20,000 bases of DNA from Reclinomonas americana ATCC 50394 (Eukaryota): assembly GCA_048213135.1 (NCBI GenBank), contig PS015309.1:98193-118192 (forward strand). The letters are read 5' to 3'. This document shows positions 1-20,000 of this stretch, piece by piece (the stretch's first letter is position 1; each line of letters starts with the position of its first letter). Under the pieces are notes generated by a model. The model saw nothing but the letters and a program-made list of their open reading frames with translations. It had not been told where the DNA came from and searched no databases. A program made the position numbers and the translations under genes.

Positions 1-3000
1 CGCAGTGGCGGCCGCGGCCACGCTGCGTCGATCGTCTCTGCAGTTGCCACTGGGAGCGCTGGAGAGTGCAGGACTCGGTAGCCAGTCGCCACGTTCGCCC
101 TCGGCTCCGCCGTCGGCACGATCGCAGTGCGCCACCTTCCGCTACCACTCGCCCGATCACCGCGGAGGCGCGGCTGTGACGGCCCCCGTGCAGCCACCCA
201 TGTCGTCGCGATACGGGTCACCGTCGCACTCGCCGCGAGCCTCGCTGAGTGGAACGCTGTCGTCGAGCACCATGGCCGTCGCCCGCCGTCTCGGTGTCAA
301 TGTCGACGAGGCGCAGTTCATGGAGGTTTGTGGCAATGATCCCGACTCACGTAGTGCTGCACGCGAAGGAGAGGAAGACAGAGAGAGAGAGAGAGAGCTG
401 TGCCACTGACCATGTTGTGCGTTGATAATGATCGTGATCGTCGGAGAATCCACCGAGGCTGGGCCACCGGCGTTGTGCTTTTGTTATCCTTCTCTCTCTG
501 CATGCCATGCTCATCATGTTTGTTTGTGTTGGCGATAGGATGTGCGCAAGACGGTGGTGCGGTTGAAGAGCTTGCCGAACAGCACGACCTACGTGGAGGA
601 TTCGGTGCAGTTTTTGGTCGAAGCCGCCAAGGAGAGCGACCATCACCGAGTGATTATGCGTGAGCTGGGCACCTTGGAGGTGCTCGTCTCTCTGCTTCGT
701 CACCACGGTACCAATGTCCAGTCGCTGGCCGCCGAGGCGCTGATGCTGCTTGGTGCGTGTGTGTTGTCCTCAGTTTCGCACATGCATGATTTGTCCGATC
801 CTGAACCGATGCAATGTCGTCTTGTGTTGCAGCGAACAACAAGGGCAACCGCGACCGCATTCGCGAGGTCAATGGCATTCAGCCGCTCATTAATTTGCTG
901 AGCAAGGAGTATGCGGTGTTGCCGGCCGCCATGGCGCTGCGCAATTTGTCTACTTCGTCGGAGAATCAGGTAAAGAAATGCCACTGCAGCACGTCTGATC
1001 CTTGTCGACTGTTGCTCATCAACCTGCGCCACAGCTCCGCATCTACCAGTACGACGGCGTGGAGCCGCTCATTCGGCTGCTGCGACATGTGGATCCGCGC
1101 GTGCAGGAGCAAGCGGCTGCGGCCGTGGCCAACTGTGGTTCGCATTCTTGTCCCCAAGCGTGTGTGTTTGTGTGTGTGCTGCAGTCGACTCAAATCGATC
1201 GCCTTGTCGCACACAGCGGCCAACTCGACAAACCAGGGTCTCATTCGTGACCTCGGCGGCGTTCCACTGCTGGTGAACCTGCTGGCAATCAAGAACTCGC
1301 GCATTCAGCGACAAGCGGCCATGGCACTGAAGCACCTGGCCGGCAACGAGGTCAACCGCGACCTTGTGCGCGACGCCGGCGCTGTGCCGCTGCTGATCGC
1401 CATTCTGCACGAGGGCAAGACACGAGCCAAGGCCATGGCGGCTGGTGCGCTCGGATTCTTGGCCTACGGCGAGCAGGTTTGTGTTTCTGTGTGTCGTGTT
1501 CATGCCTGATCATCATCACTCGTGCTGAATCATACAATCGGCGGGCGCAGACTCGCGAGCTCATCCGCATCCACGGTGGCGTGGCACCGCTGTGTACCAT
1601 GCTGCAGTCGAGCAACGTCGATTGCCTTGAGCAGGCCACCACCTGCATTGTCAACGTTTGTGAGTACTCATTCATTCCCTTGTGTGCTGATCACTCGCTG
1701 GTGCTGTTGCTAACTGCTGCCGCCAATCGCCGAACAGCTCTGAACAAGACCAACCGCCACCTGATTCGCGAGTGCAAGGGCATCGAGAGCCTCATTCGCC
1801 TGTTGATGAGCTCGAACGCCACGGTGCAGGAGAATGCTGCGTGGGCGCTGAAGAACCTCGGTATGTGAATTCCCCTGTCAGTACGATGGCAAGCTCCTCC
1901 AGCATGACACTCATGCTTTGTCCCCCCTCGCAACAGCCATGACACGCGCCAACCAGGACCACATTCGCGAGAATGGCGGCTTGGAGGTGATGTTGGACCT
2001 GCTGGAGACGGAGAATCACGAGCTGCTCTCACATCTGGTGTGGGGTCTCACCAATCTCAGTTGCGTCTCTATCTTTATTCTGTACCCATGGCCCTGTGAC
2101 ACGCCCGTGTATCTAGTTCTGACCGCTCGCTCGTGTATGCAGCCATCAACAAGTACAACCAAGACGAGATTCCGCGTCTTGACGGCATCCGCCCGCTGTT
2201 GCAGCTGCTGTCGCACGAGCGTGATGATGTGGTGGAGAAGGCCGCGTGGACGCTGACCAACCTGTCGGTCAGTGTGGAGAACCGCGACAAGATTCGTCTG
2301 GAGGGTGGCATTCCGCCCTTGATCACACTGCTGGCGCACCCGAACGCCAAGGTCAGTGCAGTGTTTGCGGGGACAAGGAGAGTCTCTCTGTGTTCTCCTC
2401 GCTGACTCTCTTTTGCAGTGCGTGGAGAAGGCGGTGGCCGCACTCAGCAATCTGGCCACACGGAAGCCATGCCGCGAAGCCATTCGTAAGAACGGCGGCA
2501 TTCCACCGCTGGTCGAACTGCTCGACTCGAACATTCCGGAGCTGCTGTGCGGGGCTGCCGGCACACTGGCCAATATGGGTGAGTGGCACGAGTCACGACT
2601 GTTGCATTGCACGAGGACACGCATCTCATCTCTGTGTCATCGTGTCTGTGTGCGCAGCGAGCAAGCACGATGTGAATCGCGAGGCAATCCGCGCCGAGGG
2701 AGCTGTCGGTCGCCTGTTGCAGTTGCTCGGTCACGTGGATAGCATGGTCCGCACCGAGGCGTTTGCCGCGCTGCGCAACCTGTCTCGTTGCGTTCACTCT
2801 GTCTGTCGTGTGCCAATGTGTTTACTCGGGGAAGCTCACCGACCCGTGCCATGCGTGCAGTGGGTGAGGCCTTCAATCGCGCGCTGCAAAAGTTCGTCAT
2901 GATCCCCGTCGGCCCCGACACGTTTGCCGAGTTGGGTCAGGCGGTGGCCGAGTATGAGCACGCCGCTGAGGATCTCGACGCGGCGGCGTTGTTGGAGATG

Positions 3001-3876
3001 CTGGTGGCACGGCATGGTGGTGAGTGTGATGATGATACACGCTGTCAGTGCCTGTTTGGCTTGTCTCACGATTGATTTGCAGGCACACCCGATCCACAAT
3101 TGCTGGCCGAGTACCACCGCGTGGCGCAAATGCCAGCGCCGTCGACTGCTCAGCACTCTCGCTCTTTCTCCGACATCACCGGCACCACACTGTCGGTGCG
3201 CCCGGTGCCTCGTGACGACAGCCGACGTGCGTACCAGCTGCAGTACGCGCAGCAGCACCACGATTCGGTGTCGGTGCAGTCGGACAGTCCACCACGAGCG
3301 ACCGTGACCAGCATTGATTTCCCCGAATCGTCGTCCACACCACCACCACCTCCACCGCCACCACAGTCGGAATCAGCACGCATTGTGCAACCGCACCAGG
3401 GTGGCAGCCCACGCAGTGGGTCTGCTGGGCGACCACAGCCGGCGTCCTTCAATCTCCCGCAAGTGCCTGGCTCACGATGTGCGTGCCTCTCTCTCTCTCT
3501 CTCCCCCGATTGTCACATTCAACTGACGTTTGTTCAATGCACAGCGTCACCGCCGCGCATCCCCAGCGCACCTGGCTCCACCTCGTCGCTCGGCATGAGT
3601 GACGACACGGGCGCTCACGACTTCGATCACGACAGCTCAGGCGACGATCTGGTGCGCTCGATCGCCCCACCACGGCAGTCAGCGTTCTCCACCCATACCA
3701 CCACCACCACCACCACGACAACCACGGCTGCGGCGCCGCCCATTGTGCCTCCACTGGTCGGCTGGGGAGCTTCATCGNNNNNNNNNNNNNNNNNNNNACA
3801 CCCACCCACCATCATCACCACCGTCAACCCCTCTCAGCACGACCACGCCAACGCAGGTCGTGCAATTTTGATATGA
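1..3876 (+). CDS. Armadillo (ARM) repeat protein with S/P-rich termini; 5' end lies upstream of the window; about 13 introns
   Basis: Spliced exons give tandem ARM repeats, e.g. NRDRIREVNGIQPLINLL..AAMALRNLS, NQGLIRDLGGVPLLVNLL..AAMALKHLA, NRDKIRLEGGIPPLITLL, CREAIRKNGGIPPLVELL. Frame-restoring GT-AG introns include 326-538, 753-832, 970-1034, 2060-2142, 2787-2860 and 3479-3544. The stop position is uncertain because of the N gap at 3778-3797. Confidence 0.85.
3698..3725 (+). repeat. (ACC)n microsatellite, poly-Thr in the ARM gene tail
   Basis: accaccaccaccaccaccacgacaaccac run. Confidence 0.8.
3778..3797. other. Assembly gap (20 N)
   Basis: Run of n in the sequence, flanked by ACC-rich low-complexity DNA. 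Confidence 0.99.
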
Positions 3877-4076
3877 CGGTGGTCGTGTGGTGCTTGCTGG
3901 AAGTTGTACTACCTCTTTGTGTTGCTGCCTCTTTTTTGCCTCCTCCTCCTCCATAACCTCCCACCCTCAAACAAAAGAATTGCCAGAAAGAACCTCCTGT
4001 CGCCCACCATTGTTAGAGCGTCGTCAGTGTACCACGATACTTCTTGTCCTTGACATCATAATCATCACAAGGAAAA

Positions 4077-6420
4077 ATGCTTCTCTTGCGCACATTGCGT
4101 CGCTCACTGGCACGTTCGTGTCATTGCTTTCGTCACTCCCATCGCTTTTGTCTCACTCGTGCCACACAGTCGACGAGCAGCAATGTGATGCGCGACACGC
4201 CCGATGCCTTCCTGCAGAACGTGATGAAGCACAACGGATTGCATCGCGCCATGCTTGCATTTGATCACGAAACGCGTCGTGTGGTTCCCTCACATCCCGC
4301 GCTGCAAGTCGTCGCCGACTGGATGATGAATGACCCGGTGGACTACAAGCAGGTGGGCTCAGCAACACATGCATGCATGCGTGAGTGTGTGTGCGAGAGA
4401 GAGAGATGCGCTGATTCTCTCTCTCTCTCCTCTGTCGCAGCACGAGGCCATCTTCCTGGAAATCGGGCGAGAATCCGGTGCTCTTCTCGGCTCCTTCTTG
4501 TGGTGGACGAAGCGTGGTCAGGGTTGTGGTGGCATTCGCTATCGCTCCTACACCAGGTTGGTGCTGTCTCCTGTCTCGTCCCTTCCTCTTTGTCTCTGTG
4601 GCTCACGAAGAATTGCAGCCTGGAGGAGTACCTGCGCGACGGCATGCGACTGGCCACTGGAATGGGCCAGAAGAGCGCCCTCGCCGGTCTGTGGTGGGGC
4701 GGTGGCAAAGGTATGTAGTCGAAGGTGGGGAGGGAGGGAGAGAGAACTTGTCCACGCTCGAGCTCATATCATGTGCCTGCTTGCAGGCGTCATTCCCATG
4801 CTGTCGTCGCACTCGGACAAGTTCCTCGACCGTGGATTCCGTGATGCGTTGTTCCGAGACTAGTTGAGTGGTGACAGCATTTCTCTGTGTTGCTTGACGT
4901 GCGCCGTGCCTCACTCTCGCTGCAGCGGTCGTTTCCTGACGGGCACACAGGGTGCCTACGTGGCTGCTGAGGATGCTGGTGTGCTCATCCCCACAGCTGC
5001 CTGCCGTGCGTGTCTCATGACTCACTTATGTGCTCGTGTGCACAGGCGTCAACGTGGAAGACGTCGATGTGGTGTTCTCACAGACTCGTCACACGACGTG
5101 CATCTCACCGCGCCTGGGTGGCTCCGGCAACCCGTCAGTACCCACAGCTCAGGTGACTCCCTGTGCGAGACAGGCGGTTTTTTTGCGATGCCTACTCAAT
5201 TCGCCAACCGCCTGCGTACACGCAGGGCATTGTGTGTGCGATGGAGGGTGCGCTGCAGTTCCTGAAGATGGGCAGTCTCGAAGGCAAGACTATCGCGGTT
5301 CAGGTCTGTGTCATGCTCGGCGTCACTATTTTGTACCACGAGTTGTTGTTGACGCGGTTCCACACACAGGGTGTCGGCAATGTGGGTCTGCCGCTGGTGG
5401 AGTTCCTGCTGGCCAAGGGTGTGAAGCGCATCGAGGCTGCCGAGACTGTGCCGCACCGACTGGAACAGGTGTGTCTGCAGCCGTGCTGGCGTCTCGCTCT
5501 CTCCGTCGTGCATCGTCTCTGACCGTGCACTCGCCACTGGCAGGCTGTGGAGAAAATCACCGACTCCCGCGTGCGATTCCGTCATGGTTGTTACTCCTCG
5601 CACTTTTTCTCCTGCATGCGCCATCGTGTGTTCTCATCAACACACAAACTATGCTGGGCAGTGACCACCAGCGACATGAGTATCTTGCACGAGGAGGTGG
5701 ACATTGTGTCGCCGTGTGCCTTTGGTGGCGTCCTCAACCCCACCACCATTCCTGGCATTCGGTTTGTGCGCTCTTGTGGCTCTCTACCTCAAACACGCGA
5801 GAACTTGACTTGCTGTGTACTGTAGGGCGAAGATTGTGTGCGGTGCGGCAAACAACCAGCTGCAGGATCCGCGGGGAGATGGAGAACTGGCGAAGCGCGG
5901 CATTGTGTACGTACCCGATTTCGTCGGCAACCGCATGGGCATGTTGCGTGTGTGCAGCAGCGTGACCAGTTTCCTCTGTTTGTTTGTTCGTTGATCCTCA
6001 CGTCACGCTTGTTGTACAGCGTGAACTGTGCCAATGAGCAGTACGGCTACGTGACACCGTCGTCGGAGGATCCGTCGTTTGCCCGTCACTTTGGTCGCGA
6101 CTGGGAGGACTCGATCCAGAACACCACTCAGCGCGTTCTCGAGTTTCGTATGTGCCACACCCACTGTGCCGAGGCGCACACTCACTTCGCACTCTGTGAT
6201 ACAGGCTTGCCAAGCGCACTGGAACATCGCCGGCTGTCGCGGCCATTGTTGCGTCACTTTACTCACCCACTCACATACAGCTGCTTGGACTCATTGTTGC
6301 AATAACCAGTCGCTGGCCGACAAGGCCGCCAGCGTGCCGCATCCGATTTGGGGCCACCGTGTGCGCCACATTATCGAGTCGCTGCGGAAGAACTCGTGGG
6401 CCAGCGCCGAGCGTTTGTGA
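4077..6420 (+). CDS. Glu/Leu/Phe/Val (leucine dehydrogenase-like) NAD(P)-dependent dehydrogenase with probable mitochondrial presequence; 14 inferred introns
   Basis: The spliced product contains GGIRYRSY, GMGQKSALAGLWWGGGKGVI, YVAAEDAGVNVEDV, GGSGNPSVPTAQG, Rossmann motif IAVQGVGNVG, DIVSPCAFGGVLN, KIVCGAANNQL, GIVYVPDFVGNRMGIVNCANEQYG and HPIWGHR. N-terminus is MLLLRTLRRSL(STSS); TGA at 6418-6420. Confidence 0.92.
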
Positions 6421-6736
6421 CAAGTTACCCCATTTTTGTGGGAGAAATGACAACTCCGTGACGTGAGATTTGATTCCCCTGTCCGAGTGAAAGTAAGTGG
6501 AAGATTGGCGGACTGCTGGCGCGTGGAGAGAGCGAGAGCGAGAGAGATAGATAGTAGTGCCGCCACGTAGATCACCACTGCCGTCGCTCGAGTGCTTGGG
6601 GACCTAGTTCGCCGTGTCAGCGTGGTTTGCTCTCGTCACTAGTATCTGGGAGGACAGTGGGAGTGCTAGTAGAGGCCACAACGGTAGAGAATCAACAGCT
6701 GGTGCGACTGCGGCAGTAGAGGGAGAGCTGTCAATC

Positions 6737-9700
6737 ATGGGGCACTCGGAATCCAAGTCGGCGCGTGGTGAGGCTATCGTGTTTGGCGAGGTTTGTGCTG
6801 TGGGTGTACTGTGTTCTCGGTGGCCGGAACACGTCTCACCAGTCGTGCACAGGAGGGTGCCGGAAAGAACGAGCTGCTTCACATCGCAACGGTGCGTCTT
6901 TTGCTTGTCGTGTGAGGGGCCGGCGATCAACTTTTTCACCAACATGGAATCGTTTTGTTTTTCTCCAGCGGCTTTACACCAACACTCCACTCAAAGTCGA
7001 AGCCGAGCGACATGGGCGTCTGCTCTTCAGTGAAGTGAGTTGTCGTCTCAGTTGCCGCGCCCCTTTCTCCCCTGCCGAGCTGACAAGGGCACACGTGTGG
7101 CAGGAACTCGTGGTGAAGCACGGAAGCGAAACCACCAAGATTCTCTGGGTCTGCATCTCATGTTGTTGTTGTTGTTATCATTGATCTCCCTGCCCGTTAC
7201 TCACGCATGCACGCACTGTACTCTCAGTGGAATACGGGCGATTGGACGCACTTCTTCTCTGGCATGTCTGCCACGCAGAAGAAAACGTTCTTCTCGTCGG
7301 ATCGGCGCTGTTATGTGATCGTGTACAGGTGAGTAATAATTATTCCGAATGCATTTTGTGATCCCCAGTTATGACTGACCAGTGGATGGGGTGAACCAGC
7401 GTGACAAGTCGCCGTACATTCAATGCGGTGCATCAGGTATGCGGTTTGAATGCGAGGCGCGGGAGGGTCATTCATTCACTGACAATTCGGCGATGGCTGT
7501 TTTGCAGGTCATTCAGTGCCTCCGCCATTTCCAGAGTGGCCGCGGTGCTGCGCCGGTGCTGGTGGTTGGCACTGGAGTAGAGTGCGAAGTGGTTGGGCGA
7601 GAACGAGAAGTATCGAAAGAGGAAGCCATTGTTGAGTGGTCTGCTTTCGTGCTCGCAGCCTCACACGCTGACACTTACAGCATCGTTCGTCGCGCAGATG
7701 TTTGCACAGCAACACCACGCGCTATACATGGAATGTTCCGTGGTCACTGAGTGGCACGCGGAGCTTGTTATCCAAGTGGCAAGTTCCATCGGCATTCAGT
7801 GCAAGTTTCGTTGGCTTTGATTTGAGGGAGACCGTGCTGTGTGTGTGACACTAACCGAATGTCACAGCGGTCGACACGGACCCCTTGATGCGAAATCGGT
7901 GATTGCTGAGGCGCTGCGGGAAAACATTCCTGCCGATTCCGTGGTGCCCGTTGAGGTGCCTGCAGCGGGCTCTGCACAGCAAGCGCCGGTCGAAGCCCTC
8001 GTCGGTGGTGCGCACCCACACATGCAATTGATTATAGCTTCTTCGCTCACACGCATCACGTTTGCAGTGCCGGCCGTGCACGACCAGGGCTCCGTGTCTG
8101 ACTCCGAGAATGTGTACATGGGGTCGAACTACACGCCGTGCCGAGCGGCATACGCGTTCATTGTCGACAACGAACGAGAGGAGATACCGGAGGGCTTTGT
8201 GGCCATCGAAGAGCTGCGCGCGCTCTATGTGTATCGCTCAAAGGTGCTGTCGTTGTGTACGCGCTGCGTCACATCTGAATGCTGTGCTTACCGCGGACAC
8301 CAGGAGTCGTTCCTCAAGCGCCTCAAACCCGAAGTGGCGATCATCACGCTGCTTGATCCATCGCTGGTTATGGAGAGGGTCGACGCGAGTGCGGTGCATG
8401 TGCGCAACCAGATCTACAACCTGCTACTCAAGTTCGAGACTCCGCAAGCCGCCACCGACATCATCAGTGAAGTGGAGCGCAATCGGGAGCAGCTCGAGGC
8501 AACGCTGCAGAGTGCTGATGGCGACGTGATGCAGCGCGCCCTCGGCCTCGGTCCAGGTGGGCCACTGCTCACAGAGACGGCGCATCCACACGAGATTCCG
8601 GAGGAAGCGGCGATGGAGCACATGGAGCAGCAGCTGGCACAAAAGGCGGCGATCCAGCTCGATGCGCAGAAGCAGGCAGCGGCCATGAACGAGCTGCTGC
8701 CACCGCAACCTGGTCTGGACGAGTTGCGGGAGAAGGAGGAGCTGCGACAGCAGGCGCTGGCCATGGTTGGCCGCTCCGTCGAGCCAGCGCCGCTGTCCGT
8801 ACCCACGACATCGACTGCGCAGACGACGGCGGACACGTGGCCTGGCGAGCTGAAGCGGCTGTTTGCAGAGACAGATGAAATGCAGCAGCCGGGGACGATT
8901 CAACAGGGGCGGCCGTCGCGTCTTCGCGATGTCGACGTGGGCGAGCCGGAACATGAGAACCAGACCGAGGAGATGCAGTCCACGACGCCAGTGGATACAT
9001 CAGCGACCGCCAGACGGTTGCCGATGTCGTTCGGTGTGGACGAGGTTGCCGCGGCCGCAGCGCCTGGGTTGATGAGCGAGCGGACGTCTTCGTTGCGCGA
9101 CGCTCCGTCGGCAAAGAATCGGTCGGGCTTTCCATCCACGAGTGTCTACAGCCTTCCGCTCGTCGGTGGTCGTGGCGGCAGCAGCCCGTCACCCCGAGTT
9201 GATGATGCCTCGGTGCAGTCGGAGGTCGGCAGTGAGCGGGTGGTCTCGGAACCCGGCATTGTGCTGCACCTCGCTGGCTCCGACGTTGATGAGGGGCCAC
9301 GCCGGCGCCTGGACAGTGTTGCCGCGTGGCCGTGGTTTTCGCAGGCAGGCACTGCACCACCGCAGCTTCGAGACCAGGCGAGCGCGGGAGAGGAGGTGCA
9401 GCCGCTTGTGCGCTCCAGTGGTATGCCGGAGAGCGCACCGACGTATAGTCAAGTGCAGCCAGTGGCCGCAGCCGGAACATCTGTGGCGCAAGGCATGGGT
9501 GTGCCACCGGTTGGCTCGCTCGTTGGAGCTGCCGTGCCGTCGCTGGTGCCCGAGGCCATGTCGTCGTTGGTCGGCAGCAGCAACCTTGGCCAGGGCGCAG
9601 CTCAGGCCGTGTCTGGTGGCATGAGCATCGGATCTGTGACTGGTGCGGCACAAGGTCTCGGTGGTGCCAGCATCGGCAGCGGTGTGGCGCAAGCCGTGGG

Positions 9701-10880
9701 GATGCCATCGTCGGGCATGAACGTCGGCTCTCTGGCAGCTGGTGCGGCGCAAGGCATGGGTGTGCCGTCCGGAGGCTCGCTGGTTGGAGCTGCCGTGCCG
9801 TCGCTGGTGCCCGAGGCTATGTCATCGTTGGGTGCGGCTCAGGTCGTGTCTGGTGGCATAAACACCGGCTCCGTGGCTCGCGCGGCGCAAGGCATGGGTG
9901 TGCCGTCCGGAGGCTCGCTGGTTGGAGCTGCCGTGCCGGAAGCGGTGTCGTCGGTGGTTGGTGGCACCAGCATCGGCAGTGGTGCGGCACAGGCCGTGTC
10001 TGGCAGCATGAACATCGGCTCGCTGGCTGGAGCTGCTCCATCAATGGTCTCGGCGTTCCACCACCTTTCACCGTCCGCTGAAATTCGTGCGGCTGCTGTT
10101 CCACCTCCGACGGGGCCAGCTTCAAGCGTGACCAGCCAGGTGTCAGATGCGGCACCCCGGCGTCTGCCTGGTGCACCGGAGGGCGACGACAATTTCATGA
10201 CGGAGCAGTTGCTGCAGTATGCGCCGTTTGGCACGTCGGGCGACGAGACAGTGGAAGATGTGCGGGAAGCCACCATGCCGATTCTGCATCGCGTGCCGGC
10301 GGAGGACAGCATGAGCGGACTCGTGCGCAAGTCGGCACCCGAGTCGGTGATCAGCCAGCCTATGGGCTCAGCCGTTCCGCGACTCGCCGCATTCCGCTTC
10401 CCAGCCGACGACGAGCCCATGCCGGAACGGACAAGCGCATCTCTCGTCCAGGGCAGCGAGGCTGTTGCGTCTGCGCCCTTTGACTGGATTCCACATACGG
10501 TCGAAGAGGACGACATTGATGTGGTGGAGGAGGCGCCGCGCGGGACGGTAATGTCGCAGCAAGTGGAGACGCAGCCGCCGTCGTTTGTGCCAAGTGCGCT
10601 TTCCTTGGGGGACGAGGAAGAGGAGGCCGGAGTAGACGACAATCTGCTGCAGGGCACGGGGGTCGTCGGCCTCGTCGACATCAACAAAGGCGAAGACGAC
10701 GACGTTCGCATCAGCGACAACAACAGGGGGGACTTGCGTGGAGAAGAGAAGCAGGTAGACCGAGAGGTGCGAGAGGAACTCGAAGAGTTCGTTCCGTTCC
10801 TGCAGATGGACCCGACGCCGCTGTGGAGTCCGCGAGACGAGGCCGGCAATGGCTTCCTGCGTGAAAACCGACTGCAGTGA
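6737..10880 (+). CDS. Multidomain protein: N-myristoylation motif, degenerate Ras/Rab-like G domain, PH-like domain and long low-complexity/repeat tail; 10 inferred introns
   Basis: Spliced N-terminus reads MGHSESKS..IVFGEEGAGKNELL..KILWWNTGD..CYVIVYSVTSRRTFNAV..PVLVVGTGVE..REVSKEEAIMFAQQHHALYMECSVVT, which follows small-GTPase topology. A PH-like stretch follows (EGFVAIEELRALYVYRSK..LLLKFETPQAATDIISEVER), then a single terminal exon 8304-10880. Confidence 0.75.
9485..10035 (+). repeat. Coding imperfect tandem repeat (AQGMGVPxxGSLVGAAVP(SLVP)EA.SS x3 plus interspersed GSGAAQAVSG units)
   Basis: Near-identical DNA ggcgcaaggcatgggtgtgcc..ggctcgct.gttggagctgccgtgccg starts at 9485, 9746 and 9884. 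Confidence 0.9.
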
Positions 10881-10908
10881 TTAGCTAAACAGTCAATGTA
10901 CATTCTTT

Positions 10909-13900
10909 CTACGAAGAGTGCTCGGGGGGTGGCCGCGATGGCCCGTCTGGTTCCGGGATGGCGAGTTTGTTGTATCGGTAGGCCAGTTTGTGTGCCTCGA
11001 TGAACGCCACCAGCTCCGACTCCAAAGGCACGTGGACCGCCCCGGGTGCGAGTGGGCGCTCATCTTCACCGTCCACGGCAGGCGCGCGTGGTGACGGTGG
11101 CGGACTGTGGCGAATAAAGATGTCGTGCAGCCGCTTGTGTTGAAAGAGTGTCCACCACAACACGAATGCGGTGGCCGCGACCAGCACCACTCCAGCCACC
11201 GAAGCCAGCGCCGCACTCTGCTGGAACACACAGAACACTGCACGAGATGACAGGCAGTGGGAGACACTCGGCAGGGAGGGGACCACAGCAAAAAAACACA
11301 CGGACCGAGCCAGATGCCAATGTACAGCAGCAAGTAGCCGTAGACGATCTGCGTGAGATTCTTGAGGATCTCTGGAGTGCTGTGCATTGGTGAAAGTCAG
11401 TCACTCTGCATGTGCGCACACGCACACACATGCGTACACGCTCCACTTGCCAGTACGGCGACGTGACCGGCCCATCATATGCAAAGGCACTCTCCGTGTG
11501 CGACAACCAGTTCCATTTCTGCGCGACAACCAAGTTCAGTACAAATGGGCATGCAGCAGAAGCAACAAGCACACTCACATGAACAATGTGTCGCACGTAC
11601 AAGGTGCACAGGCACAGGGGTACGACGACTGGTGAGAATACAGAGTACACCAGCGCCACCTGTGTTGGAGCGACGGGTTGTCACGAATTGCACACAACAA
11701 CAATAACAACAACAGCACGATTGTCGTCACCCACCCCAAAGAGTAGGCTATCCTGGGCGTATTTGGAGTTGAACTCGGGCGCAGCAGGACGAATGGCGTG
11801 CGCCATTTCTTGCGGAGTCTGTGCACGCGATCAAAGTCAGTATCGCACGCGGTCCTCTTCACCACGAACACGGTTGACGCACCACAGCGGACCAGGCCTG
11901 GAATCAAGACATCGTGTGAGATAGTATCGACAAACACGTCAACAATATGCAGCGCACACCTGAAAGTGCATGTCGAAAAAGTGCTTCAGTTGTGCCATGC
12001 GCGCGGCAGTGCCAATGAAGAAACTCTGCATCACATACGCCTGCAATTCCACCGTTTAGTGTCGCAGCGCATGCGTGCACTGTATCACTCGCGCATCACT
12101 CACCACAAAGAATGCACAACTTCGCAAAAGCACACCAAACAACATGAATTAAGTGCCGCCGTGGCACATGCACAGAGAGTGAGAGGAGCGATCATGCGAC
12201 TTACGTGGAGGCCGTAAACACCTGCGGGGAGCGCGACAGTTGGACAAGAAGGCAAGGTACACAAGTAGTGACAGCAGGCGCACGAAACATGCTTCAGGGC
12301 CCCTGAAAGGTCGCTGCCAGTCTTGTGGACCTCGATAATGGCCTCCAGCGTGGAAATGGCAAGCGACGGAAGAATGACTGTGGACACGGCCAGGTACGTG
12401 CATGTCCGCCCGAGAACCGCGGACCGCAGCCCTCGGCGAGAGACAGGCCTCTCGTGCCGCGACGTGTCTACCACTCCACTGTCAGCTCACGCCAATGTCT
12501 CCCGAACGCCGCCGCCGACTCAAACGCAACATTGCACAACTGCCGGCTGTGCGCATGCAAGCAGCGAGAACAAAGTGAGAAACCCACCGAGCGCGTGTGC
12601 TAACATACGCGCAACACACGCACAATGACCAAGTTGACCCAGTAGAGGAAGAACATGGGAACCGAATATCTGCGGCGACTTGACGTGAGTCACCAGACAG
12701 ACAGCAGAATTGGAGAGACAGGGAACAATCAATCGCACGTGGCCATGGTCGCCCAAAAGGCTGCGATTGAGGAGAACGCAGTTTGCACGTCAGCTACGAG
12801 ATACAAACACACGACGACCGATAAGAGACACGCACGCACCACTGGCCCCGGTGGTGAGGAAACGGGTGGCACCGCCAATCACATCCACGCTCGCCATCTG
12901 GCACGTGCATGTGAGACAGTGTGGATGCACACTGCCGAGGCATATGCGCACGGCTCACCTTCTCCAGGGAGGTGAGGACGGCCAGTGGAGAAGAATAAAA
13001 CACCAGAAACACAATAAAGAGGGAGCGCCATATCAACACACGCCAGTATCGCTGCCACTTGGTGTAATGCAAGTTCTGTGGCACTCGTGTCAGGAGTCTG
13101 CGTGGTATACGTGCCGTCGCATGTGCATGCACAAACCTCCCAGATTACGTCTTCGGGTCGCGGGGCCGGATGGAATCCCCACGATACGGGCAGATCACCA
13201 GCATGCTGCACAGCATGTGTGCATCGCCGTTCAGTTGGCATTCGATGCAAGCTCAAAAAAGAACCCCTTGCACCTTCAAGCACTGCGCGGCAGAGTCGGG
13301 GTTCCAGAAGGTGACAAAGGCACGCGAACCCGACAGTGTGTTACTGCGTGTCGGATCGGCCAGTGCGCGCTCGTACTCCAGCTTGGTTCGTGCGATCGTC
13401 AGCTGCTGGTCAATTTCGCGTGCGGTTGACTCCCCACGCTGATCGCAGCCGCAGCACATGCACCGGCACTGCATGCGACCCTTGATTTCATCACGCGCAG
13501 ACATGAACTGCAGTAGGCGTACTCGCTCACGCTCCGCACGCAGAGCATCAAGGCGTTGACAGGCCTGCGTGCGTACAGCATGAAAAATCAGCAGACAGAC
13601 ACACGGTTTGCTGATACCAGCACCCAGACGAACCGCAACAAATCGATGCAACACCGGCACCACCTGCAGACATGCACAGTGAGAGAGAGGGAGTACACCC
13701 TGAATTGCACTGCGACTCGACAATCACCTCAATGTGCGCCACTTGTTCTGGTCCATGTCTCTGGTCACGCAGCACGTGTGCAATGTTCTTGCGGACGGCG
13801 GCCAAGGTGGCTCTCGGAAGCCCGTCTATCATCACCGTGTAGGGCGCCAGAGAGAGTTCCAACGAGGCAGCCGATGGCGGAGCCACAGACGGCAGCAACG

Positions 13901-14933
13901 ATTCGACGTCGTGTTCACCGCCGTGACCAACCTGCTCCGAGAAGAGCTGGGCGTGGCGATAGACACCGAGAGAGAACGGCAGCACGTGGAACCGCTGGAA
14001 CGCATACAGCACGACACAGGCAGTCAGAATGACCACCGCCATGTGACTCCACAGTCGCGGTGAGCCCGGCGCGACCTGTGTCCATCACTGTCAGCAGGAA
14101 CAGCAACAGCAACAGTGGCCACACAAGCACGAAGCATTCTCAATCGTGGTGATCGCAAACGCTGCATCGGTGACATTGGCGATCTCACGATACAATGGCT
14201 GATCGTCCAGCGCGTTGCCAGTGAGGTTGAGCGGCAACTAGACGAGCAACACCGTTGAGAGAGAACGTTGGTTGCATCGCTGTGTGTGCAACGAGCTGGC
14301 GAACCGTGACCAGCAACGCCGGGACCGACAACATCAACAGCAGCGCGATGAGACGCTTCTCAAACGCCAGAAAGATGACCACATCACGACTCAGTCGATT
14401 CTCAAACTGCGCACACGCACACACGCAGAGCAAGCGATCTTCAGCAGGCAGCGAAGATCCACAACAATCGCGATCCCAGGCTGCGCAACGTCACGATTCT
14501 GCCACGAAAACACCTCCGTCCACGAGAACACACCATCGCCCAATCGCGGTGCCTGTTCCACTCGCCGAAACGCATCGCCTGTGACTGCCGTGAGCGGACG
14601 CTGCCGGCATGCACACACACATTCACAATTGATTCCTCTGTCACACCTTCCTCCATGGTCAACTCTGCAGCCGACGCAGCAGCAGCAGCAGCAGCAGAGG
14701 CTGATCCCTTGTCATCACCACTCACTGTGCGCGTGCGTGACTGGCGTGCACAGACAGAGACAGAGACAGAGAGAGAGAGACACACCTCGTGCTTCATGCA
14801 CAAGACACTCTTTGACACGTTCCAACACGCGACGCACTGCGCGCAGTTGCAGTCGTCGAGTCCATGGCACCAGTGAGAGAACGACACCAGCGACCACTAA
14901 CGAGAAGACCAACGACGGCAGCAACACTGCCAT
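10909..14933 (-). CDS. OSCA/TMEM63/CSC1-family mechanosensitive calcium-permeable channel; about 23 introns
   Basis: Spliced motifs: FSW..FENRLSRDVVIFLAFEKRLI, LPLNLTG..ITTIENVAPGSPRLWSH, APYTVMIDGLP, AFVTFWNPDSA, PAPRPEDVIWENL, FYSSPLAV, VILPSL, AFFVAYVMQSFFIG, YSVFSPVVVP. ATG at 14933-14931, TAG at 10911-10909. Confidence 0.92.
14676..14698 (-). repeat. (GCA/GCT)n microsatellite encoding poly-Ala in the OSCA N-terminal loop
   Basis: gcagcagcagcagcagcagcag on +; translates as [13 protein letters not shown] on -. Confidence 0.8.
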
Positions 14934-15033
14934 CGCGATTGATCGATGGAGTGGACAGTTTGATGTTGCTGACGTCACACACCCGCACAAAAAGGGGTTT
15001 GCTTTGCCCCACTTGAACCTTACAAGAGAGAAA
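14934..15033. promoter_or_regulatory. Putative bidirectional promoter (100 bp) with a perfect TGACGTCA palindrome at 14970-14977
   Basis: Lies between the divergent start codons of the OSCA gene and RPA3. TGACGTCA is the CRE/bZIP consensus; function is inferred only. Confidence 0.5.
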
Positions 15034-15568
15034 ATGGCGACTGACTTTGCTGTGGCGCGTGTGAATGCGGGTGTGATGTCGAGGTGTGTGTGTTGTATGT
15101 GCTGCGTGTGTGTGTGTCTCTCTCTCTCTCTCACGCAGTTGACACAGGTTTGAGGGCAATGTGGTGTGTCTGGTGGGCGAGTGTGTGTCACAGGCGAGCT
15201 CCACTGCGCTGGTGAGGGCAAGCGATGGCCATGAAGTGCAGGTGCGTGTTCACGGAAAAAGAAAGAGAGAGATGTGCACAGTGTTGCTCATTTGCGTCTC
15301 TGTGTGAAGATTATTATGAAGCCCGGCAGCATGTACCCCAAGTTCGTGGAGGTCATTGGCTACGTGCTCCCTGGCAACCGCATCAAGGAGGAGCGGTACA
15401 CGGGTTTCCCTGACAACTTTGGTGCGTGTTTTGTATGTGTGAGCAGAATGTGAGTGAGTGTGCATCTCACTCTCTCTCTCCTCTCTCACGCACGCAGACT
15501 TGGCAAACTACAACGAGATGCTGACACTGGCGCACACTCGCTTCCGCGACATGTTCATTGCGCAGTGA
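15034..15568 (+). CDS. RPA3: Replication protein A 14 kDa subunit (about 108 aa); exons 15034-15083, 15148-15241, 15310-15421, 15498-15568
   Basis: Spliced product: MATDFAVARVNAGVMSRFEGNVVCLVGECVSQASSTALVRASDGHEVQIIMKPGSMYPKFVEVIGYVLPGNRIKEERYTGFPDNFDLANYNEMLTLAHTRFRDMFIAQ*. The RVN, V.LVG, A.DG, FVEVIG and FDL..YN motifs are typical of RPA14. The ORF track does not show it as a unit. Confidence 0.92.
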
Positions 15569-15671
15569 GCGGGGGGAGTTGGAATTCGCTGAGTGCAATG
15601 TGTGTTGAATCGATTTGTACTGCTTGTCTCTCTCTCTCGTTTGTGTTTGTGCTTGCGTTGCGCTTGGCGGC

Positions 15672-17638
15672 TCAAGTCGCCACGCTGGTGCACCGGGCAA
15701 TGCGCTCGCGCAGCTCCACAATGCGTGCCGACTCGGGCAGATGCTCCGTCGACACCTCGCATGCCTGCCACAGCTCGTGATTCACCTCGACCGGCGAGTC
15801 GAGCAGCACCAGTGCGGCCTCGAGCAGCTTCTCCGCTATGTCGCACAATCGTAAGTGAGTGGACAGGTGGAGAGCACGAGCGGGGGTTCCACTCACCACC
15901 GTCGACGGAGAGCGACACCGAGGAATCAGAAATGGCGTACGCCAGCGCGCCCAGCACAGCAATCTCCGTGTCGTCACCCGTGCGCTCCTTGCCAATGTAC
16001 ACGTTGTGTGCCAGTGACGCAGCCACCTGCCACCAGCATCGCACAGATACCCGTCAACCATGCGTCACCGCCCCTGCACTGACTGGTCATATCAAACACA
16101 CACAAACCTTCTTCTCCACCTCACTGGCGGCGTTGAGCGACTCCACCACGTGCGGCATAATTTGCTCGTAGATTGTCTGTCGCACAAAGTGTGCGCCTTT
16201 CGGGCTCGAGAACATGTTGCAGAACTGTGTACGACGGATGTGAGCACAACACACACGGACGCGCACACTTGCAACTGCACCAACCATGCGCAGTGTCATG
16301 ATTTTGAAGGGCGACGAGGCGGCCGACGTCGAAAAGTACCCCAGCAGCTTCTCGACCAGTTCACCTGCGCCGCACTTGCAAAGTGAGCGCGCGTACGAGC
16401 CTAACATGATGGTGGCCTCATGCACACACCTTGCGTGTCAACAAAGCGATCAACAGCCGCCGGCAAAATGAACGCCAGCCGCTGCAAGTCGAGAGCCGGG
16501 AACAGCTTGTTGACCGGCAGGTGGCCAATGATGGTGGCTGCCAGCCCGAATAAGGAGACACGCACACAAACATAAAGGAAATGCAAAAAGCAAACGTACC
16601 GAGTGTGCTGGCATCGCCCTCGGAGAGCACGCGATTGCTGCGCACGTTCTCCGCCGCGCGCTTGAAGAAATCCTCGTCGGCCACCAAAGACGTGGTCATG
16701 GCCGCCTCCTGCTCGACAAACTCGCGCAGCTTGCTAATCACCGTCTCCAGATTGGCGCTGGCAAACAAGTGCGGCTGCGGCACCGCAGCAGCAGCCGCCG
16801 CCGCAGCCGACACCGTCGGCGGTGGTTGCAACGGCGGTCCAGCTGCTCCCACGCCTGTCAGCCAAAAGAAAAACAAGACACGAGGAGTAACACAAAGGAG
16901 GACCTGACGCAGGCACCGAGCTCGGCACCGGCCCGAGCGACGGAGCCGCCGGGTTGCTGAACTGGCGCAACATGGGCGCCAACATTGCCCCAAACGGCGT
17001 CGACAGCACCTCCGCCGGAAGCCCAGTGATGTCTGCAAGAACCACAGTTGTCACTAACAAACGACACAGTCACTGTAAATAAATGCAGACAGAGATAGAG
17101 AGAGCACAGACGAGAGGGAATGTCGTTTCCGGTGAGGAACTTGGCGCACTCGGAGCTGAAGTTGTTGCAGTTGTTGGTGAGCAGATCGTACGAGGTATCG
17201 TTGAAGCGGTGGCTCATGTTGCCCATGAAATCCCTAAACACTTCCTCACTGATGTTGGTGCGTCCCAACAGAATCCGCTGCACTGGGTTACCGTAGGGCG
17301 TGCGACCAGGCTGCTCTCACATGTGAGAGTGAGTGCGTGTCAGTGAGAGTGAGAGAGTGCGTGCGTGCGTCAGTGACACGTAACATAGGGGAACTCTGAG
17401 ACTCCCTGCCCAAAGGCGAACTCTTTGCCGTACACGACCACACCTGTGTGTGTGTGTATGAGAGAGTGAGTGAGTGAGGGACTTCACATGTGTTGTGTGT
17501 TTGTTGTTGTCAGTTGTGTCACTGACCAGTGTGCCAGATGCCATCAATCTGCTTGCCCAACATCTGGCGCGACAGCATTCGCGCCATTCCCTGCGAGAGG
17601 TCGTACAAGTACACATACACTTCGTGTTCCTCGCCCAT
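15672..17638 (-). CDS. PPPDE/DeSI1-like cysteine isopeptidase fused to a C-terminal PUL domain; about 9 introns
   Basis: [82 protein letters not shown], with the catalytic His and Cys intact. PUL-type motifs [22 protein letters not shown] and TLRMFCNMF follow. Confidence 0.9.
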
Positions 17639-17716
17639 CTTTTGTCGTCGGTGTGCGTGTCAGTCTGTGAGAGGACTTGCAAATGGGACACTCGTCAACT
17701 TCATTTTCGTTCTCAA

Positions 17717-20000
17717 TCAACGACGTTGACGCTTCTTGGCCGGCTTGTCGTCGTCGTCATCATCGCCACCGCGATCGCGTCGAGAACCGCCGCCTCGGTC
17801 ACCGCCACCTCGACCTCCGCGATCGCCTCCTCCGCGATCGCCTCCACGTCCTCCTCGATCGCCTCCTCCGCGATCGCCGCCGCGATCACCACGGTCACCA
17901 CGATCGCCGCGATCACCTCGACCACCGCGATCACCTCCTCCGCGATCGCCGCCTCCACGGTCATCGCCTCGGTCGCCGCCTCGAGCAAAGCCCTTGCTGC
18001 CGCGCTGCTTGAGCAGGCCTTCGATTTGACGGAATTCACTGTCCTCCTTGCTGGAGCGGCCAGCACCGCCAGCGCCGCCGGCACTGCGACGCGTCTTGCG
18101 GCCATCGGTCATCTTCAGTCCGAATTGGAACGCGGCTCTGTGGCGGGGTGAGATGGTGACGGAAGGCGACAGAGACGTGTCGACACCAGTGATGCGTAAC
18201 TTGGGCACGGCCTCTTGGGTCTCCTTGTAGCGCGAGTACTCCTCCTCGGTGGCAAAGTCGTAAGGGCGTAGCACTGGCTTCTGGCGCGAGTCCATCTTTG
18301 AAAAGTCGACCTCGTCGTCAGAGTCCTCGTCGTCCTCGCCGTAGCCGCCCTCGACACCGGCGCCCGGCACGTCCGGGTAGCATTCCATGTAGGGATCCTC
18401 CACCTCCAACTTGCGACGCTGCTTGGCCGTCGGCACCTCCACTGCACGGCATGTGGTGAGGCGCGAAATGCGGAACAAGAAACAGATAATTCCTACCTCC
18501 GGGAACGCCCGGCTGGATGGTGGCCTTGACCTGCTTCTGCTTGTCGAGGAACTCCTCCACACGCCGATCAATGTCCGAGGCTGCCGCCGTTCCACCCTCC
18601 GCCGCCCCAAAGTACGACACGCGGGCTGCAGCAGCCGCCGCCGCCGCAGAGGCTCCAGTCGGAGAGACCACTTGCGAGGCGGCGGCGGCGGCGGCAAACG
18701 AGGGTGCACCGACGCCACGAGTGGCCAGCGGATCATACGGCTCAGTGGCGTCGGCAAAGATGCTACGCAGGCCAATGTTGGTCAGTGCGAGGCATGTAGC
18801 AAGGTGCGACAGTACGCAACTCATCCCCGTCGTCCAGATCCATGGAGACTGCAGGTGCGCGTTTGACTGCCGCCGTCGTTGTCGCCGCCTCTGCGGTGTC
18901 GGTCTCTTTCTGCTCCTTGTGCGCTGCACACGATTGTGAGTCAACAACAAAGCACCTTCAACATGACAACAGAACGCACATCGCTTTTTGCGGCGACTGA
19001 GTTTGCCTTGTCGGATGGCGGCGACAATGCGCGACACTTCCTCCAACACATCGGGCGCCGGCAGTGAGAACATGCGTTCCTGTGTTCGTGCTAGTGAGAC
19101 TTCTATTCACACACGAGCGGGTGTATAATAACAACGCAACATCTTGCGGACAGTCGAGTTTGGAGCGGACCACGGTCATCGGCACATCCTGGCGTGCATC
19201 CTCGTCGAGCGAGTACACGAATGCGGTTCTCCGCGGCAAGAAGCGGTCAGTCGAACGCGGCAGAGCCACTGTGACGGTGATGATGGTGGTGCACGCCCAC
19301 GTGAGCAAGAAGAGTGTGCCAGTGAGAAACCACGCCGCAGACGCAACAGTTCAGCGTGGACACATGATGATCAATGGCGGCATGCAGTGAACGACCAAAG
19401 GCCGTCCGCACCGCCACACTCGAGTCGCCATCCACACTACACGACGTCGCATGTCAACAAACAGCTCATCACTTCGCCACTCCTCTCTCTCGCCTCCCTC
19501 ACGCAACGACATCAACTCGGTCCCCTTGCCGCTCTTGCTCTTCTTCGCATCACCGCCAGCCGCAGCTCCTGCAGCTGCCGCCGTCGACTTGCTCTTGGTG
19601 ATCTCCTCGTACTCCATGTCGAAGCTCTCATCGGCTTTCGCGTCGAGCTTGTGCCGCGTCTGCAAGCACCGACGCAATGAGCAGCAGTCCAGCACCGATT
19701 AATGTAAGACACACACGCCTTCTCCAGCAGCTGATAATCGAGACCCTTGACGAGATGCGTTGTGCGCTCATCACCGCCCAAGTACTTGGTCTCCTCCACA
19801 CTGCAAGCACGTCACAAACAAAGCAATGCAGGGAAACACACAGCAAAGGCGCAACGTCAGCTGCGTGGCCTTGCCCAGCATCAACTCAGCCTCCACGGCC
19901 TCATAGTCCGGAGCCTTGCCCTCACGCCTACAGTGCACGAGTGAGACAGGGAGACAGAGACAGAGGCGGGAGGCCTTCTTTCTTTCCATCTCTCTTTTTT
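17717..20000 (-). CDS. IK: RED-like (IK) spliceosomal B-complex protein; 5' end lies beyond the window; C-terminal GGDR/RGD repeat tail
   Basis: RED_N motifs VEETKYLGGDERTTHLVKGLDYQLLEK, DRFLPRRTAFVYSL..DVPMTVVRSKLDCP. RED_C motifs DPYMECYP, DFSKMD, DFATEEEYSRYKETQEAVPKAAFQFGLKMTDGRKTRR. Last in-window exon starts at about 19927; TGA at 17719-17717. Confidence 0.93.
17765..17985 (-). repeat. Coding microrepeat encoding GGDRGG/RGD tail of RED
   Basis: Repeated cgcgatcgcc/cgcgatcacc units on +, translating to GGDRGGGDRGGRGDRGDR on -. Confidence 0.9.

Follow-up and report, generated by a model that had tools for sequence, protein, structure and literature searches.

The window analysed here is a stretch of 20,000 nucleotides (nt) of Reclinomonas americana ATCC 50394 (GenBank assembly GCA_048213135.1, contig PS015309.1, positions 98,193 to 118,192 of the forward strand), and it carries two classes of 5′ splice sites, or donors. 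In the ordinary class, the exon mostly ends in G and the fifth intron base (+5) is usually a G, whereas in the second class, which serves about one intron in four, the exon never ends in G and the intron G stands at +6. This class of shifted donors is not due to chance, and it occurs at junctions whose codons do not tolerate a G at the exon end. Judging from the sequence, its members are probably real GT-AG introns of the U2 type in which the element recognised at the 5′ end lies one base further inside the intron than usual. Out-of-register 5′ splice sites are known; the abundance, the own consensus, and the codon rule are what differs here.

Second donor class and its junctions

Seven gene models (genes A to G, Table 1) were built by hand from three-frame read-outs, and each was verified to be open. 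They hold 77 introns, to which one junction of gene D that could not be closed (14140-14075, excluded from every count) may be added; this agrees with the figure of about 80 introns in the initial annotation, where 18 donors of the unusual type had been listed. The 18 heptamers are all found at the positions and on the strands given there, each after a base other than G, and all act as donors in the rebuilt models (18/77). Counting every donor that matches GTT[GTA][CA]G brings the class to 19/77, the additional site lying at 13639.

Cleavage at GT..AG, which had been proposed for these introns in spite of the shifted motif, is kept: 11 of the 18 listed junctions are placed to the residue, free of indels, by alignment with homologues, a solved structure, or a profile. 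Gene B, compared with 14 homologues, shows an indel at 0 of its 13 junctions, and gene F was aligned with 16 homologues of RED. At 4863, sliding the junction by one base yields TAG, as had been pointed out and is directly visible in the sequence. The Arm profile runs across the 2060 junction from position 39 through the split codon 40 to 41 and then 1. In gene E, exon 1 aligns with residues 8-39 of 2wp7_A and exon 3 with residues 60-126, and the model that uses donor 17384 supplies exactly 20 residues between them. At 19347, the nearest homologue (P0099) shares a lineage-specific insert at the junction.

Graded by support, 11 of the 18 donors are strong, 4 are moderate (2787, 7631, 12288, and 19507), and 3 are ambiguous (7805, 12530, and 14489). 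Alternative GT dinucleotides were scored on a matrix made from the 58 ordinary donors, with the GT columns left out and the ordinary donors themselves scored leave-one-out. Next to the class donors there are 84 alternative GTs compatible with the open reading frame (ORF), and only 3 of them reach +2.5 bits. None of the four ORF-compatible alternatives to 7631 lies above +1 bit, and the single one at 12288 scores -1.8 bits. In-frame alternatives had been announced for 7805 and 19507, and both exist: for 19507 they are 19510, 19516, and 19480, and for 7805 the rival is 7799, which scores -7.0 normally read as against +5.0 for 7805 slid by one base. The rivals of 14489 are the in-frame, ordinary-looking upstream donors 14513 (+4.3 bits) and 14533 (+6.2 bits).

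Searches with the exons of genes C and D gave nothing of use for the junctions at 7631, 7805, 12288, 12530, and 14489. Four exons of gene C gave no match in Pfam; single exons of gene D gave only weak Pfam matches (PHM7_cyt, E = 0.14; RSN1_7TM, E = 0.022), with nothing for 8 of 10 exons; and a PDB sequence search with two exons of each gene gave no match. A protein search with a 79-residue exon of RED yielded 61 candidates, none of them significant. The top match of the representative search, P0065, was set aside, as it consists of a vertebrate RED tail repeated three times and is uninformative on lineage. Genomic DNA of relatives was sought in metagenome contigs, where 0 of 166 pattern matches could be confirmed. 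Another model of gene D, with 12530 inside a coding exon and a class donor at 12615, was dropped, since the conserved block proper of the kind in question would lie further downstream in the chain. This comparison was made with plant OSCA sequences and is not used as evidence.

Dynamic-programming parses blind to the donors recovered 8/18 and 9/18 of the class donors. These parses are noisy (fused genes, antisense reads, and invented introns) and are taken as a weak check only, the hand models being used instead.

Table 1. Donors of the second class, related sites, and gene models in the window. A slash marks the exon-intron boundary.
Feature	Positions	Strand	Gene or product	Intron (nt)	Support or remark
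A/GTTGCGT	2060..2066	+	gene A	83	strong; Arm profile gap-free across junction
C/GTTGCGT	2787..2793	+	gene A	74	moderate; exon ends at Arm position 40/41; chosen by donor-blind parses
A/GTTGAGT	4863..4869	+	gene B	63	strong; TA/C = Y in conserved [DE]YG, 14 homologues, no indel
T/GTTGCGT	5943..5949	+	gene B	77	strong; AT/C = I in invariant NRMGIV block
A/GTTTCGT	6143..6149	+	gene B	62	strong; indel-free against 14 homologues
T/GTTGCGT	6248..6254	+	gene B	62	strong; indel-free against 14 homologues
T/GTTGAGT	7631..7637	+	gene C	67	moderate; needed for frame switch; chosen by one donor-blind parse
A/GTTTCGT	7805..7811	+	gene C	63	ambiguous; in-frame rival 7799 with same acceptor
T/GTTTCGT	12282..12288	-	gene D	67	moderate; 19-exon chain open to stop
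T/GTTGCGT	12524..12530	-	gene D	153 (length outlier)	weak/ambiguous; frame only, needs 16-nt micro-exon before it
C/GTTGCGC	14483..14489	-	gene D	83	ambiguous; frame-consistent
T/GTTACGT	17378..17384	-	gene E	74	strong; 2wp7_A alignment
A/GTTACGC	18194..18200	-	gene F	63	strong; AA/A = K in conserved PKAAFQ[FY]G, 16 homologues, no indel
A/GTTGCGT	18814..18820	-	gene F	58	strong; GA/C = D before conserved IF.D block
T/GTTGCGT	19134..19140	-	gene F	61	strong; length as in most homologues across DCP...; upstream exon = RED_N 159-197
T/GTTGCGT	19341..19347	-	gene F	79	strong; no indel against P0099
C/GTTGCGT	19501..19507	-	gene F	71	moderate; variable region, one-residue indel against nearest homologue P0099
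C/GTTGCGC	19849..19855	-	gene F	55	strong; AC/T = T, fits L[ST][IV]E[ED]TK[FY]LGG, no indel; chosen by donor-blind parses
T/GTTGCGG, further class candidate	13633..13639	-	gene D	75 (in-frame stretch)	absent from initial annotation; usual 3′ end; ORF open with or without splicing
C/GTTGCAC, variant donor	14286..14292	-	gene D	55	lacks G at +5 and +6; frame-consistent; in-frame rival G/GTTCGC 12 nt upstream
Gene A	2-3873	+	armadillo-repeat (ARM) protein		
Gene B	4077-6420	+	Leu/Glu-dehydrogenase-like enzyme		
Gene C	6737-10880	+	GTPase-like protein, long repetitive tail		
Gene D	14933-10909	-	OSCA/TMEM63-like channel		
Gene G	15034-15570	+	small OB-fold-like protein		
Gene E	17638-15672	-	DeSI/PPPDE peptidase fusion		
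Gene F	19927-17717	-	spliceosomal protein RED/IK		5′ end beyond window

Motif displacement and the codon rule

The bimodality of donors that the initial annotation had put forward for a genome-wide check is present within the window, where a G at +5 and a G at +6 are mutually exclusive between the two classes. The former is found in 0/19 class donors and 48/58 ordinary ones, the latter in 19/19 and 1/58, respectively. The G is followed by T (+7 in the class, +6 in ordinary donors) in 15/19 and 43/58. Most ordinary donors had been said to follow a G, and 45/58 of them do, as compared to 0/19 in the class (p = 7e-10), so that the dependence on the last exon base (-1) also holds in the window. 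The same contrast is seen in gene B alone, where all 13 junctions were checked by homology (-1 G in 0/4 class donors vs 9/9 ordinary ones, p = 0.0014).

If the donor columns were independent, with base frequencies taken from all 77 donors, 2.04 class donors would be expected among them, against 19 observed, and the motif occurs in only 9 of the 1435 GTs of the sense strand that are not donors. On the ordinary matrix, class donors have a mean score of -8.7 bits as they stand; a slide by +1 raises it to +4.5 bits and a slide by -1 gives -0.5 bits, the mean of the ordinary donors being +3.4 bits. Within genes, the octamer H-GTT[GTA][CA]G[TC] (H, any base but G) occurs 23 times on the sense strand and serves as a donor 18 times; under the same conditions, G-GT[GAT][CA]GT is used in 12/13 cases and H-GT[GAT][CA]GT in 7/31.

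Beyond the donor, the class introns are like the others. All 19 are GT..AG introns, with C at -3 of the 3′ end in 17 and T in 2. Their lengths are 55-83 nt (one of 153 nt) vs 53-88 nt for ordinary introns (with two first introns of 207 and 213 nt), and both classes have the same CAG/TAG ends and the same base composition. As judged by reading only, the class introns have no common sequence beyond the donor that would speak for an introner-like origin.

A further regularity, absent from the initial annotation, links the class to the encoded protein. At all 19 class donors, a G at -1 would alter the amino acid; in phase 0, the codons just before the junction encode I, I, Y, D, D, F, and H. Where a G is present or would be synonymous, 45 of 47 donors carry it. 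The G is barred by the codon at 30 donors, which comprise the 19 of the class and 11 of the ordinary type, most of the latter being strong forms such as GTGAGT, GTGCGT, and GTAAGT. Since the codon bars G at every class donor, the absence of -1 G is a condition for the class and not an avoidance. Phase 2 is found in 8/19 class donors vs 6/58 ordinary ones (p = 0.004).

Readings of the displaced element

The ordinary recognition element is the heptamer G/GT[GAT][CA]GT, which begins with the G at the end of the exon. The class element would be the same heptamer moved into the intron, /GTT[GAT][CA]G[TC], with the +1 G of the intron itself as its first G and a T where the +1 G would otherwise stand. 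The small nuclear RNA (snRNA) that reads the element, which would be U1 and later probably U6, would then be shifted by one base in its pairing and would meet a mismatch at position two, while the cut would remain before the only GT. In this way, the intron would supply the G that normally pairs beside the junction where the exon cannot. With the G at +6 instead of +5, the U6 contact would also lie one base further from the cut. The displacement of the motif, its tie to the codons, and part of the junctions are seen in the data themselves, whereas the pairing register and the identity of its reader, whether an RNA or a protein, are inferred.

A shifted U1 register had been suggested in the initial annotation, and this part of it stands insofar as the sequence statistics fit; the fit is incomplete in that the class has a tighter consensus than sliding the ordinary element would give and its slid pairing is no stronger than that of H/GTGCGT. 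By a hand count against the usual U1 5′ end (as given in PMC4856993), the class forms 2 Watson-Crick pairs and 1 wobble pair when read normally, and sliding raises this to 4 Watson-Crick pairs and 1 wobble pair.

Several observations weigh against a displaced element read by the usual U1. Slid pairing of the class equals normal pairing of H/GTGCGT, so that the predominance of the class where G is barred does not follow from pairing strength alone. The usual U1 offers no partner for the C at +5, and CG occupies +5 and +6 in 17/19 class donors vs 13/58 for the equivalent positions of ordinary donors (p = 3e-7). T is found in 0/19 at class +5, whereas at +4 of ordinary donors, the corresponding position, it is the most frequent base (21/58). 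The exon side is not slid, as the base at -2 in the class agrees with that at -2 in ordinary donors (p = 0.95) and differs from that at their -3 (p = 0.009); it may be that a reader anchored at the cut, such as U5, acts on that side. Class-type heptamers after a non-G base are also left unspliced in modelled exons at 10464, 9092, and 8723 (+) and 16971 (-), those at 10464, 9092, and 16971 being perfect. At 10464, a T/GTTGCGT, no branch-like or CAG signal was seen by reading 55-90 nt downstream. With respect to the data themselves, the sample is a single 20 kb window; the junctions are predicted from frame, consensus, and protein or profile alignments; 7/18 of them are based on frame and consensus only, 3 of these being the ambiguous ones; and the choice among nearby ordinary donors was sometimes made by consensus (e.g., 753 vs 759, 15422 vs 15428), which inflates the ordinary -1 G.

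Because sliding brings no gain in pairing over H/GTGCGT and leaves the C at +5 unpaired, a variant snRNA or a protein reader stays alive as a rival. In its RNA form, this rival postulates an additional U1 snRNA, or a variant U1/U6, whose different 5′ end would pair perfectly with GUUGCGU, which means two RNAs and not two registers. We regard it as unlikely on balance, while several of the points above speak for it. The class consensus is sharp (GTTGCGT in 9/19, CG at +5 and +6 in 17/19), the C at +5 has no partner in the usual U1, and the class outnumbers ordinary types 19 to 11 where G is barred, in spite of a slid pairing no better than that of H/GTGCGT. Variant U1 genes moreover exist in humans. 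On the other hand, a preference for G at +3 and a tolerance of C at +4 are seen in the ordinary class as well, and the sharpness may only reflect a weaker site that needs every remaining contact. A scan of the window with Rfam gave 0 matches, hence no snRNA lies in the window.

A more ambitious form of the displaced-element reading shares the idea of a special reader and is put forward only tentatively. It supposes a two-form 5′ splice-site code set by the frame, in which the element would be moved when G is barred. Its reader would then be an snRNA that is altered or reserved for the class, such as a paralogue of U1 complementary to GUUGCGU, and U6 would make its contact at a distance of six bases from the cut. 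If true, this two-form code would be the first routine genome-wide non-canonical register with its own reader.

It is rather improbable that the usual U1 reads the class in the normal register with one U of GUU bulged (GU[U]GCGU), that is, in the bulge +2/+3 register. Such a register is known in human cells (PMC4856993), it leaves +1 G and +2 U in their normal places, and it agrees with the unslid exon -2. However, pairing like that of H/GTGCGT plus a bulge penalty predicts that the class should be the rarer form, whereas it is the commoner one at non-G sites (19 vs 11), and the class octamer is the better donor predictor (18/23 vs 7/31). A bulge also leads one to expect that -1 G adds to the site; -1 G is found in 0/19, but the codon bars G at all 19, so this comparison is without power.

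Still less credit is given to the absence of any special recognition, in which almost any GT would work in short introns with strong 3′ signals and GTTGCG would be a compositional or mutational by-product. The introns are indeed short and uniform with strong CAG ends, and several ordinary donors are poor matches (e.g., GTCCTC and GTAGGA). This explanation is opposed by the 19 class donors observed vs 2.04 expected, by the invariant G at +6 and the T at +7 in 15/19, by the rarity of the motif among non-donor sense GTs (9/1435), and by the 3/84 ORF-compatible alternatives that reach +2.5 bits. Finally, an artefact of gene modelling (wrong junctions) or of draft assembly errors, to which a run of N at 3778-3797, the gene D junction unclosable with GT-AG, and the noise of the donor-blind parses might point, is hardly to be believed in view of the 11 junctions placed to the residue by independent proteins or profiles and of the 8/18 and 9/18 class donors that the same parses still chose.

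Genomic setting, known systems, and significance

The window has a G+C content of 55-67%, with genes dense on both strands and introns that are very short and very many. Intron length is 53-88 nt in 74/77 cases, the exceptions being 207, 213, and 153 nt. The first two of these belong to first introns, about three times the usual length, of gene D (14785-14579, 207 nt) and gene A (326-538, 213 nt). The counts of introns per gene are 13, 13, 9, 9, at least 9, and more than 20, with an intron of about 73 nt and spacers of 30-320 nt. Intergenic spacers of about 30-100 nt separate neighbours at 10880-10909, 14933-15034, 15570-15672, and 17638-17717, tail-to-tail and head-to-head alike; even with about 9 introns for each kb of coding sequence, the genome is very compact. 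A compact, intron-rich rhizarian amoeba has 13 introns per gene, introns of 82 bp, and a median spacer of 162 bp (PMC13746701); the figures of the window are similar, which is a resemblance only. In the same source, 99.5% of the introns of this amoeba are GT/AG, and its genome-wide G+C content is 53.2%, below that of the window.

In gene B, a small insertion and a PHPIWG block are shared with two Bigelowiella sequences (P0006 and P0009), unlike the bacterial homologues, which hints at a rhizarian affinity or at a shared transfer. The nearest named eukaryotic homologues of this gene are those of Bigelowiella, the best identity in the homologue search being 78% over a 40-residue exon; none of the matches was a protein of the window itself. 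For the PPPDE exon of gene E, the protein search gave a best identity of 57%, with one unnamed homologue.

Gene C combines a GTPase-like head with a repetitive tail; at 9440-10010 (+), its long last exon holds several near-identical copies of a unit of about 30 residues rich in Gly, Ala, Val, and Ser (AAQGMGVP..GGSLVGAAVP...). In gene D, four micro-exons of 15-17 nt (12546-12531, 12221-12205, 12119-12104, and 11897-11883, all -) are required for an open frame, and they are flanked by introns of normal length with good signals. At the unclosed junction of this gene (14140-14075, -), the upstream frame reads to ...ENAS and the next exon must start in phase 0 at 14075; no GT or GC donor is present in phase 0, and the obvious C/GT...CAG/ pair puts the next exon one base out of frame. 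The cause may lie in the assembly, in an unusual intron, or in the model itself. In gene F, the GT donor 19712 (-) of intron 2 adds two residues (AC) without a counterpart in 16/16 aligned RED homologues. From the alignment, this is probably a GC-AG intron of 59 nt with the donor AAG/GCGTGT at 19718 (19713-19718, -), which removes AC. The run of 20 N at 3778-3797, in the last exon of gene A, indicates that the source is a scaffolded draft.

Among known systems, U12-type introns form a minority donor class that has no -1 G preference, and they are marked by a long ATCC-type donor and a branch box near the 3′ end. The class described here resembles them as a distinct minority donor class without -1 G preference. 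Identity with U12-type introns was rejected, given that the donor and branch motifs are absent and that length, 3′ end, and composition match those of ordinary introns.

The shifted (+1) register of human 5′ splice sites to U1 snRNA was reportedly described by Roca and Krainer in 2009, and the bulge +2/+3 register is said to have been described by Roca et al. in 2012. According to PMC4856993, human cells provide proof of both the shifted and the bulged register, U1 pairs one base out of register at a few human sites, and the validated non-canonical registers together account for about 1.5% of 201,541 human sites. As in the human +1 register of that source, the GU at the cut is kept, the U1 match lies one base out, and the +5 G is absent with a G one place on. 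Unlike it, the class makes up 18-19 of 77 introns, has a sharp GTTGCGT consensus of its own that is not A-rich, and follows the codon rule, and U1 would here be only the presumed reader. Like the class, the bulge +2/+3 register (PMC4856993 and PMC9311317) has one more U behind the GU and matches normally further downstream; the counts given above favour a slid over a bulged pairing, and the class is far more abundant here.

Until the STAT3 tandem donor, in which a distance of four bases was reported as the first exception, every known cut had lain five bases from the U6 contact (PMC11162779). The two cases agree in that a spacing other than five bases is possible between the cut and the G paired with U6 C42. 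They differ in that the STAT3 shift is one base upstream in a single human exon, whereas a distance of six bases would apply here, as far as the motif indicates, to a quarter of the introns. In human donors in general, the exon-end G and the intron +5 G are the two most conserved flanking bases and are linked (PMC8283771); in the window, the link is all-or-none and is accompanied by a one-base displacement of the intron G.

In the literature searched, supplements excluded, no such class was found as a routine feature of any genome. Searches for a shifted U1 register or base-pairing returned human and tunicate work only, those for the heptamer together with "splice" gave only unrelated items among the matches listed, and those on Plasmodiophora introns gave nothing on donors. 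Two recent rhizarian genome papers leave donor motifs untreated: "donor," "snRNA," and "spliceosom" have 0 occurrences in the main text of PMC13746701, and "donor" has 0 in PMC12730881, while the supplements could hold donor logos.

The class would be of real interest if it holds genome-wide and in RNA. In a genome of this kind, roughly one junction in four would be misplaced by gene finders trained on only one donor matrix, as the donor-blind parses illustrate. If about one in four introns uses such a register under the codon rule, the organism would offer a natural system for the division of work among U1, U6, and U5 at the 5′ splice site. If true, the class bears on the distance tolerated between the cut and the U6 contact, as well as on the influence of coding constraints on splice signals.

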